64,000 bases of DNA. It comes from Escherichia phage Mizar. The notes under the pieces are model-generated. The model had not been told where the DNA came from. It did not search any database and was given only the letters and a program-made list of their open reading frames with translations. Both the position numbers and the translations under genes were made by a program. Location: sequence record PV714129.1. One strand, written 5' to 3'. This document shows positions 27,989 to 29,335 of the stretch, in pieces (the first letter of the stretch is position 1; the number at the start of each line of letters is the position of its first letter).

Positions 27989-28456
27989 TCATAATAATGG
28001 TTCCCAATCAACAATCACAATTTCTAGTTTAGTGGAATATGTATCAAGAATTTCTTCAATGATATCCCAGTTTCCACCACCTATACCTGCACCAATTCTT
28101 GGCATATAAATTACAGGCTTTGTTATCTTATTTTTTCCGAATTCATTTAATTCTATTATACAATTCATTAAAGCATAGTACTCAAAATTAGGTCCCGGCT
28201 CAAACTGTGTATAAAGATTAAAGCAATAAGCTTTATGGGTCTTAAAATATTTTTCATAAACCGAATAGGAACCGAGTTTAGACTCGTCTCCGAATTCGGT
28301 TTGAAGTTTATCGGCTTCTAAAATTTTTGGATAAGCCTTTGCTAATTGACCTGCTACACCGGCGCCCATTGTATGAAAACAATTGCACCCATGAGCAATA
28401 TTATTACCTTTAGAAAACAGGGCGACAATATCGCCCTTGATATAGTTTTTAATCAC
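27989..28456 (-). CDS. Macro-domain-like protein (putative ADP-ribose binding/hydrolase)
   Basis: Gly-rich motifs NIAHGCNCFHTMGAGVAG and IYMPRIGAGIGGG resemble macro-domain signatures; 155 aa. Confidence 0.45.
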   Translation of the reverse strand: MIKNYIKGDIVALFSKGNNIAHGCNCFHTMGAGVAGQLAKAYPKILEADKLQTEFGDESKLGSYSVYEKYFKTHKAYCFNLYTQFEPGPNFEYYALMNCIIELNEFGKNKITKPVIYMPRIGAGIGGGNWDIIEEILDTYSTKLEIVIVDWEPLL

Positions 28457-28796
28457 TTGCTACAAGTCCTCTAGTATAAGAGTCAACTAGACGGTCCACC
28501 ATAGAATTGCATGCTGCCTTATCTTTAGGTTCCGCCACCGAGCATTCTAATATTTGCCATTTTTTATAGTATCTTTTAATTAAAGTAGACGCCTTGAACC
28601 TACTAGACGCCCCATCCTTTTCTCCGTCTTTATACGCATATAACAATTTTTGTGAAAAATCTACTTTACACTCTTGACTTTTACCACAATAATCAGACGC
28701 CGTTCTGTTTGTATACTCCGTTACATCAGTATATGTAGTATTAGCAAGAGCGTTAAATGAAACCAAGCCAACTATTAAAGCCAACATTTTGGTCAT
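28449..28796 (-). CDS. Secreted Cys-containing protein
   Basis: Signal-like MTKMLALIVGLVSFNALA; 4 Cys; 115 aa. Confidence 0.5.
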   Translation of the reverse strand: MTKMLALIVGLVSFNALANTTYTDVTEYTNRTASDYCGKSQECKVDFSQKLLYAYKDGEKDGASSRFKASTLIKRYYKKWQILECSVAEPKDKAACNSMVDRLVDSYTRGLVASD

Positions 28797-29335
28797 TCTT
28801 TTATTTCCAGTAGTTTATTTGATTTAAGGTAATTAGCCTTTTCTAGGACTTCAGAAGCATATTTACTTCCAGCACTTGTCTTCCATCCCGCATTATATGA
28901 GGATAAGGCTTTCCTTATATCCCCGTTATGTATATTTAACCAATAAGAAAATTCGATATAAGCCCATCTTGCTGAATTAGACCGCTTAGATAGCATTTTC
29001 TTAATTTGGGCATCAGTCATATTATAACCAAGCTGGTTAATTCTTGCCCTCATTGTTGGTAGATAGTTTTGGAACATTCCATACGCATGGTGGCCTTTCT
29101 TATCTTTAAGATTAATACCGGCAGATGATTCCTGCCATAGTATTGCGGCCATTATGTATCCAAGTCCTTTCTTATGCATATTTTCATGCGTTTTAAATTT
29201 TCCGTCCTTAGAAAACTGTTCCCCAAACTGATAAGCATAATTCAAGTTATCGAGTTGGACATTACTAAAAGTATGCTCGGAGCTATGTGCTGATAAAGAA
29301 AGAGCAAATAGACCAGCGAGTAGTGCTTTTCTCAT
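28793..29335 (-). CDS. Secreted SLT-like lytic transglycosylase
   Basis: Signal peptide MRKALLAGLFALSLSAHS; motifs WQESS, GMFQ, YNAG resemble family-1 lytic transglycosylase. Confidence 0.5.
   Translation of the reverse strand: MRKALLAGLFALSLSAHSSEHTFSNVQLDNLNYAYQFGEQFSKDGKFKTHENMHKKGLGYIMAAILWQESSAGINLKDKKGHHAYGMFQNYLPTMRARINQLGYNMTDAQIKKMLSKRSNSARWAYIEFSYWLNIHNGDIRKALSSYNAGWKTSAGSKYASEVLEKANYLKSNKLLEIKE

Follow-up and report, generated by a model that had tools for sequence, protein, structure and literature searches.

The vs.1-vs gene pair of Escherichia phage Mizar: a predicted exported SLT-like enzyme and the 'valyl-tRNA synthetase modifier' as its possible envelope partner

How can a phage protein that is named for acting on a cytoplasmic host enzyme carry the signal sequence of an exported protein, and what does its tight pairing with the gene of a putative murein-cleaving enzyme mean? 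This question is raised by two minus-strand open reading frames (ORFs) of 180 and 115 amino acids in Escherichia phage Mizar (sequence record PV714129.1), of which a stretch of 64,000 nucleotides, hereafter the window, was analysed. Judged by sequence, the two ORFs are the orthologues of T4 vs.1 and vs, both known and named genes, and the second is annotated 'valyl-tRNA synthetase modifier'. The reading put forward here, for and against which the evidence is about evenly balanced, is that they form a coupled module in which Vs.1 would be a Sec-exported, murein-cleaving enzyme and Vs a co-exported partner in the envelope. The gene identities, the signal sequences, the SLT motif with its GH23-like modelled fold and the coupling of the two genes are the parts of this reading of which the sequences and models make us confident.

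The two ORFs can be placed among the known genes of the T4 family because identity to the T4 proteins, PHROG matches and synteny agree. The 180-residue protein shares 83% identity with T4 Vs.1 (NP_049725) over 178 amino acids, with an expectation value (E) of 1e-115, and falls into PHROG 600 (E 3e-67 over residues 1-178); the 115-residue protein is 67% identical to T4 Vs (NP_049724) and falls into PHROG 1256 (E 6.5e-35), and its relatives carry PF26829, a Pfam family present in newer releases. The T4 syntenic genes are regB, vs.1, vs and tk.4, an order common to Tequatrovirus, Mosigvirus, Gaprivervirus, Winklervirus and Kanagawavirus. A 2-kb region around the pair is 99.3% identical to Shigella phage SHSML-52-1 (Mosigvirus) and is matched by more than 650 T4-like phage records, and the window is, on its sequence, that of a Mosigvirus, an RB69-like relative of T4. 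Mizar Vs.1 has the same length, signal sequence and position between regB and vs as its T4 orthologue, with no difference of substance, and Vs likewise agrees with T4 Vs in length, position and its four cysteines.

An original prediction, made from the nucleotides alone, had correctly located both minus-strand ORFs and had noticed that the longer one's stop overlaps the start of the shorter; this overlap is an ATGA, which points to translational coupling (Table 1). It had also called the enzyme unexpected and had left its partner without a name. The first label is unwarranted because the enzyme is T4 vs.1, recognisable by identity and synteny, whose SLT similarity was already reported by Nolan et al. 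(2006), and the partner is none other than vs. A GAGG Shine-Dalgarno sequence lies 6 nt 5' of the vs.1 start and overlaps the regB stop. A scan of the vs.1/vs junction for promoter-like and terminator-like sites revealed none, and promoter-like matches across the vs.1-vs region stay at the level expected by chance in shuffled sequence.

Both proteins open with a Sec-type N-terminus, as had been proposed from the Mizar sequence. Each combines a K/R n-region with a hydrophobic core of 8-9 residues and small residues at -3 and -1, and cleavage is predicted between MRKALLAGLFALSLSAHS and SE in Vs.1 and between MTKMLALIVGLVSFNALA and NT in Vs; the hydrophobic maximum of Vs.1 covers residues 4-12, and candidate cleavage sites follow residues 15-18. 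A crude heuristic for signal peptides (a basic n-region, an uncharged hydrophobic core of at least 8 residues and small residues at -3 and -1) is passed by 46 of 47 Vs.1 relatives and 36 of 38 Vs relatives, against a background of 12 among the 166 window ORFs of at least 60 amino acids (7%), one of which is rI, known to be exported. The failures appear mis-started or truncated, the two among Vs relatives looking truncated at the N-terminus. The AlphaFold models are consistent with such an arrangement: residues 1-20 of Vs.1 are modelled with low confidence ahead of the folded domain, and residues 1-19 of Vs have a predicted local distance difference test score (pLDDT) of about 50, the first helix beginning at residue 20.

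In four Vs relatives a lipobox (VALSGC) stands in place of the signal-peptidase-I site. In these loci (L041, L042, L044 and L066, on IMG/VR contigs of 102-172 kb, with the ORF at about 3049-3375) the signal reads MKKLFVLLVVVALSG followed by Cys, the protein has a fifth cysteine, and Vs is predicted to be lipid-anchored. A lipobox would bring Vs to the same compartment by another path and thus supports its export. The conservation of the signal sequences of Vs.1 and Vs is stated with confidence; export and cleavage themselves are what we infer from it. In line with export, N-terminally His-tagged, full-length T4 Vs formed inclusion bodies in the E. coli cytoplasm, according to a published study (PMC8076793).

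The predicted mature form of Vs.1, of about 162 amino acids with an isoelectric point (pI) of about 9.6, carries the signature of a muralytic enzyme. The motifs of family-1 lytic transglycosylases, reportedly set out by Blackburn and Clarke in 2001, are E-S, G-L/M-M/F-Q, A/S-Y-N-x-G and a downstream Tyr. Vs.1 contains WQ-E69-S70-S, G86-M-F-Q89, S146-Y147-N-A-G150 and Y159, that is, the catalytic E-S, G-x-x-Q, Y-N-x-G and downstream Tyr of that family, and the E-S, GMFQ and YNAG pattern named in the original prediction is therefore confirmed. In an alignment of 47 diverse relatives, E69, S71, G86, Q89, N90, Y147, N148, G150 and Y159 are invariant. Pfam SLT (PF01464) is matched by 44 of these 47 relatives at E of at most 0.01 (best E 1.3e-7), and precomputed PF01464 matches are present on many of them. 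The AlphaFold (AF2) model built from the same alignment reaches a pLDDT of 90, and the top 20 Foldseek matches to it in the PDB are filled by the GH23 chitinase 3w6e, MltD (8rhi), Slt (6fpn) and phi6 P5, with probabilities of 0.75-1.0. These results bear out the earlier description of the protein as an SLT-like enzyme.

A single-sequence search of Vs.1 against the PDB gave no match, and the family profile found only goose-type lysozyme there (E 0.4), which is the correct superfamily and not significant; NCBIfam has no model for Vs.1 or Vs. Homologues of Vs.1 occur in 2059 phage records, including those of Acinetobacter, Aeromonas and Vibrio phages, Ackermannviridae and Felixounavirus. Vs.1 is accordingly a supported candidate for an SLT/GH23-like enzyme, as far as sequence and model go, with a transglycosylase and a GH23 hydrolase or chitinase not separable by sequence. 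The resemblance to SLT is itself already in print and is here confirmed at the level of the family: Nolan et al. (2006) found it at E 0.012-0.74 in six phages of the T4 type and referred to PSI-BLAST matches reported before. This marginal similarity was all that a search of the literature for an experimental function of Vs.1 turned up, and the T4 protein itself has no experimentally shown function.

Compared with the family-1 lytic transglycosylases and GH23 enzymes, such as Slt70, MltD and MltE, Vs.1 has the motifs, a lysozyme-like helical fold and a periplasmic location in common, the last two by prediction, but it is remote from them, begins with an extension of about 40 residues that is specific to its family, lacks accessory domains and belongs to a family encoded by phages only. 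In size and architecture it is reminiscent of VirB1, P19, IpgF and EtgA, specialised lytic transglycosylases that serve secretion and conjugation systems; these have about 160-200 amino acids, with one SLT domain behind a Sec signal peptide, and the activity of EtgA is reined in by a partner protein. To our knowledge, T4-like phages assemble no trans-envelope machine after infection.

The second protein, Vs, is conserved in a very different manner. The four cysteines that had been counted in it are indeed present (C37, C43, C85 and C96), and all 55 distinct Vs sequences, highly diverged ones included, contain exactly four cysteines in the mature part; C37, C43 and C96 align in 55 of 55, and C85 is off by one alignment column. 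Besides these, only two glycines are conserved across the family, and conservation restricted to cysteines is, at the level of sequence, a pattern typical of disulfide-stabilised exported proteins. In the AF2 model (pLDDT 87), residues 20-37, 41-64, 69-85 and 90-114 form the helices of a four-helix bundle, and the cysteine pairs are placed at the turns between helices 1 and 2 and between helices 3 and 4; two disulfides, C37-C43 and C85-C96, probably hold Vs together, although a Zn(Cys)4 site may take their place. The predicted mature form has about 97 amino acids and a mass of about 11.0 kDa; the purified factor responsible for modifying valyl-tRNA synthetase (ValRS) was reportedly of about 10 kDa. 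Vs evolves faster than Vs.1, with between-genus identities of 42-49% and 65-70%, respectively.

Comparison of the Vs model with PDB structures revealed no specific fold match and no known structural relative, and the Pfam copy searched gave no match to the sequence. When 1.84 billion representatives were searched exhaustively with phmmer for distant relatives, 7 matches were returned, all of them phage Vs fragments or relatives, and no cellular homologue. The predictions for Vs (the signal in 36 of 38 relatives, the lipobox variants and the four invariant cysteines) do not place it in the cytoplasm. The signal peptide, the invariant cysteines and the coupling to a predicted periplasmic enzyme, as read from the sequences, are in conflict with the cytoplasmic function that the name of Vs implies.

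The linkage of the two genes was followed through 70 IMG/VR loci with a vs.1 homologue. A Vs homologue lies downstream on the same strand in 64-65 of the 70, and in 56-57 its start is no more than about 10 nt away from the vs.1 stop (57 with a window of -8 to +7 nt, 56 with ±10 nt). In eight Slopekvirus-like contigs Vs is encoded 0.5-1.2 kb downstream of vs.1, and it is absent from five or six loci, which are Aeromonas-phage-like and jumbo contigs. This adjacency exceeds that of regB directly 5' of vs.1 (43 of 70) and of tk.4 directly after vs (25 loci). In Acinetobacter phages, which lack regB and tk.4, the overlap at the vs.1 stop persists with a diverged Vs. A search with Vs as the query gave the same picture from the other side, as all 27 loci found share their contig with vs.1. 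The linkage, as a feature of sequence, supports some form of partnership between Vs.1 and Vs, and inhibition of the enzyme by the smaller protein, which the original prediction had put up for testing, is a viable idea; the parts in lysis inhibition or superinfection that it had also suggested would be speculative.

Two lineages show further small genes next to vs.1. In the locus of Acinetobacter phage Henu6 (L007, 2426-4305), four small ORFs with signal-peptide-like N-termini come one after another behind vs.1, namely the diverged Vs (109 amino acids), ORFs of 143 and 99 amino acids and an rI-like ORF of 100 amino acids with 4 cysteines, together a cluster of predicted envelope proteins. In Aeromonas phage Aes508 (L008, 3045-3803), and also in L069, a 75-residue ORF and a 146-residue predicted lipoprotein (MKKTIATLFALSVYG followed by Cys, with 3 Cys in all) lie between vs.1 and tk.4, and the lipoprotein might be an analogous partner of Vs.1.

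Fitness data for both genes are available from T4. In a transposon-sequencing preprint (HIDEN-SEQ; bioRxiv 10.1101/2025.11.20.689424), vs and vs.1 are both non-essential, insertions having been obtained at 46 of 52 TA sites in vs.1, and t is essential. After growth in liquid LB, mean reads were 26.6 and 33.9 for vs and 22.6 and 15.0 for vs.1, and those of neighbouring genes were 290 (tk.4), 179 (regB) and about 650 (vs.3), so that insertions in the pair are 5- to 40-fold under-represented relative to their neighbours. When M9 glucose was compared with LB, vs was the most depleted gene (log2 fold change -2.19, adjusted p 0), vs.1 stood at -0.87 (p 0.0055, adjusted 0.155) and the neighbours were unchanged; a clean T4 vs deletion plaqued poorly in M9Glc. 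The transposon lacks a terminator, and in the authors' argument polarity is not widespread.

Taken as they stand, the T4 data imply that Vs.1 contributes something positive by itself and that in poor medium the loss of Vs is worse than that of Vs.1. A useful enzyme with a restraining partner, or two independent functions, would fit them better than a pure toxin-antidote pair or a pure chaperone. The fitness cost of insertions in vs.1 itself speaks against Vs being nothing but an antidote to a Vs.1 that is nothing but toxic, and the clearly greater harm done in M9 by losing vs than by losing vs.1 speaks against Vs being nothing but an activator or chaperone of Vs.1. The same comparison of M9 with LB (HIDEN-SEQ Data S8) also lists insertions in nrdA, nrdB and td as relatively enriched, with log2 fold changes of +1.4 to +2.3, and regB at +1.17 (p 0.049); these changes fall in the gene block of vs.1 and vs but have no bearing on the pair.

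Read as one module, vs.1 and vs would be translationally coupled, and both products would leave the cytoplasm via Sec. Mature Vs.1, a single-domain protein of the GH23/SLT type with E69 as acid catalyst, would then cut the glycan strands of host murein from the periplasmic side, before lysis and independently of the holin-endolysin pathway. Vs, whose synthesis would keep pace with that of Vs.1 and whose fold would be a four-helix bundle, would most likely act in the envelope as a binding partner of Vs.1, for which a restraining or regulating role is favoured over an activating one. The timing of expression we infer from the early-gene context and from the T4 literature. A more far-reaching version can be offered only tentatively: the 'valyl-tRNA synthetase modifier', so called since the 1970s, may be a periplasmic, disulfide-stapled partner of Vs.1, likely a restraint, the pair would remodel murein and matter most in nutrient-poor hosts, and binding of the mature peptide (about 10-11 kDa) to ValRS would be secondary or would follow breakage of the cell. 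Small exported proteins, often disulfide-bonded, that neutralise a muralytic enzyme are known from several systems, including Spackle and the gp5 lysozyme of T4, the muramidase effector-immunity pairs of type VI secretion systems (T6SS), Ivy, MliC/PliC, PliG and LprI. Vs resembles them in being small, predicted to be exported and encoded beside the enzyme, and in the T6SS pairs the two genes abut, as vs.1 and vs do.

A number of observations weigh against this module. The SLT-profile match holds for the family but not for the Mizar protein taken singly, which scores 18.8 bits, under the gathering cut-off of 21.3 (E 0.0013), and the Foldseek E-values of its model are modest (0.011-0.7, the best ones 0.01-0.2), with template-modelling (TM) scores of about 0.4-0.5. 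Vs shows no likeness in fold or sequence to known inhibitors of lysozymes or transglycosylases, as far as these were compared. Mature Vs and mature Vs.1 are both basic in T4 and Mizar (pI 8.3-9.0 and 9.6), and most other Vs proteins are neutral or acidic. A vs.1 gene with no vs beside it is kept in Aeromonas-phage relatives, Ackermannviridae and two jumbo-phage contigs, and its retention in several lineages means that the enzyme does not strictly need a Vs partner. The transposon brings stops in all three frames, so insertions in vs.1 may uncouple the translation of vs, and the minimal-medium phenotype fits a role in amino-acid metabolism or translation as well as one in the envelope. Finally, Vs has long been annotated as a factor that binds the cytoplasmic ValRS, on the authority of Muller and Marchin (1975, 1977) as they are quoted in citing papers.

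The classical role of a cytoplasmic ValRS modifier, to which the last of these points leads, is the main rival of the enzyme-partner module and is possible, though we consider it doubtful. It holds that Vs stays in the cytoplasm, binds the host ValRS, alters its properties and aids translation when amino acids are scarce, that its adjacency to vs.1 is mere synteny and that Vs.1 alone is periplasmic. In vivo, T4 infection is said to stabilise a temperature-sensitive ValRS, and mutations in vs reportedly alter plating on valS(ts) relA hosts. The annotation is repeated in current papers, and a citing paper describes the role of the T4 modification of ValRS as having been unexplained for decades. 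The rank of vs as the most depleted gene in M9, where valine must be synthesised, agrees with the classical role, as does the occurrence of vs.1 without vs, and the weaker effect of vs.1 insertions in M9 could be polarity on vs. The cost of vs.1 insertions in LB, however, is at least as large as that of vs insertions, for which partial polarity alone is insufficient. Moreover, the abutment of vs.1 and vs survives where both flanks differ, and the reduction of family-wide conservation to four cysteines and two glycines recalls disulfide-stabilised exported proteins. The classical role is weakest on topology, because neither a cleaved Sec substrate nor a lipoprotein can meet a cytoplasmic synthetase, and the Sec-type signal of 36 among 38 relatives and the lipobox of the variants would each place Vs outside the cytoplasm. 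The envelope and ValRS views of Vs are perhaps reconcilable, the possibilities being a dual localisation, binding after breakage or an uncertain assignment of the ORF.

Alternatively, the enzyme could be directed outward, with Vs.1 destined to be set free when the cell lyses, or to act in the periplasm of a superinfected or neighbouring cell, and Vs protecting the producer as an immunity protein until lysis, in the manner of the T6SS muramidase effector-immunity pairs or of T4 Spackle and the gp5 lysozyme. Such an arrangement would account for a muralytic enzyme gene followed directly by the gene of a small signal-peptide protein, and for the loss of vs being worse than that of vs.1 in M9, as for an antidote. 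It is nevertheless unlikely, given that vs.1 insertions lower fitness in liquid culture with a single host, where a pure toxin-antidote pair predicts neutrality, and that Vs bears no likeness to known immunity or inhibitor folds.

It is more improbable still that Vs.1 is an auxiliary, holin-independent endolysin of the Sec-exported or signal-arrest-release (SAR) kind that aids final lysis. P1 Lyz, R21 of phage 21 and Lys44 of fOg44 are, like Vs.1, muralytic phage enzymes that reach the wall without a holin, and they are products of late lysis-cassette genes and the sole endolysin of their phage. The signal peptide and muralytic domain of Vs.1, and a distance of about 1.9 kb between vs.1 and rI, speak for such a function, but, unlike these endolysin genes, vs.1 lies among early genes, within a pre-replicative block (regB, tk, tk.4) rather than among the lysis genes, the T4 family has a separate, canonical endolysin e and the holin t, and vs.1 of T4 is non-essential whereas t is essential. 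Least credible of all is a Vs.1 that is an inert murein-binding protein keeping an SLT-like fold, which would suit the sub-threshold Pfam score and the moderate TM-scores of the structural matches but hardly the invariance of the catalytic Glu and all family-1 motif residues in 47 diverse relatives, unexpected for a dead enzyme.

As objects, vs.1 and vs are ordinary: they have names, hundreds of sequenced phages of the T4 type carry them, and the likeness to SLT has been published. The interest that remains lies in an unremarked conflict between the annotation of Vs and its sequence, together with its tight pairing with Vs.1. If the two proteins are an enzyme and its regulator, the T4 cycle would include a wall-remodelling step before lysis, and Vs would represent a new fold of transglycosylase-binding protein. 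Since insertions in either gene had a measurable effect in the transposon screen of 2025, the question is open to simple genetics and fractionation.

Table 1. Features of the vs.1-vs locus of Escherichia phage Mizar, with positions in the 64,000-nucleotide window
Feature	Position	Strand	Basis
vs.1 coding sequence, 180 amino acids	28793..29335	minus	ORF call, T4 Vs.1 identity, PHROG 600, Pfam SLT, AF2/Foldseek
vs coding sequence, 115 amino acids, annotated 'valyl-tRNA synthetase modifier'	28449..28796	minus	T4 Vs identity, PHROG 1256
ATGA overlap, vs.1 stop TGA within vs start ATG	28793..28796	minus	read from sequence
Predicted Vs.1 signal peptide, codons 1-18, MRKALLAGLFALSLSAHS	29282..29335	minus	hydrophobic core and heuristic
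Predicted Vs signal peptide, codons 1-18, MTKMLALIVGLVSFNALA, A-L-A cleavage motif	28743..28796	minus	heuristic
E69 codon (GAA), predicted catalytic Glu	29131..29129	minus	read directly; invariant in 47 relatives
Span of the four invariant Cys codons of Vs (C37, C43, C85, C96)	28509..28688	minus	family alignment
regB, directly upstream of vs.1	29802..29344	minus	Pfam RegB E 4e-69
tk.4, macro-domain protein, GTG start, 8-nt overlap with vs stop	27989-28456	minus	Pfam Macro E 3.8e-6

Several minor features of the locus and the window were recorded in addition. A terminator-like hairpin, AGGGCGATATTGTCGCCCT, followed by GTTTTCT, lies at 28419-28437 on the minus strand, 12 nt 3' of the vs stop and within the 5' end of tk.4; its stem has 8 bp, of which 5 are GC pairs. 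The hairpin is kept in T4 and VR20 and partly in CBH8, and is absent in Klebsiella and Enterobacter phages. Because it encodes the conserved Tk.4 peptide KGDIVAL, its conservation may reflect coding alone. The GenBank record NBG1 marks a 'terminator' somewhere inside the matched 2-kb region. As for tk.4 itself, the strain table of the HIDEN-SEQ preprint gives the T4 gene the new name adfM, and its main text seeks an anti-DarTG2 factor (bioRxiv 10.1101/2025.11.20.689424). Elsewhere in the window, the signal-peptide heuristic picked out further minus-strand ORFs with N-termini resembling signal peptides or membrane anchors (23137-23403, 17232-17645, 35495-35800, 44710-44895 and 12502-12717), and one of these encodes 88 amino acids, begins with MKKLVIGLFAVMMAFSVGA and has 2 Cys.

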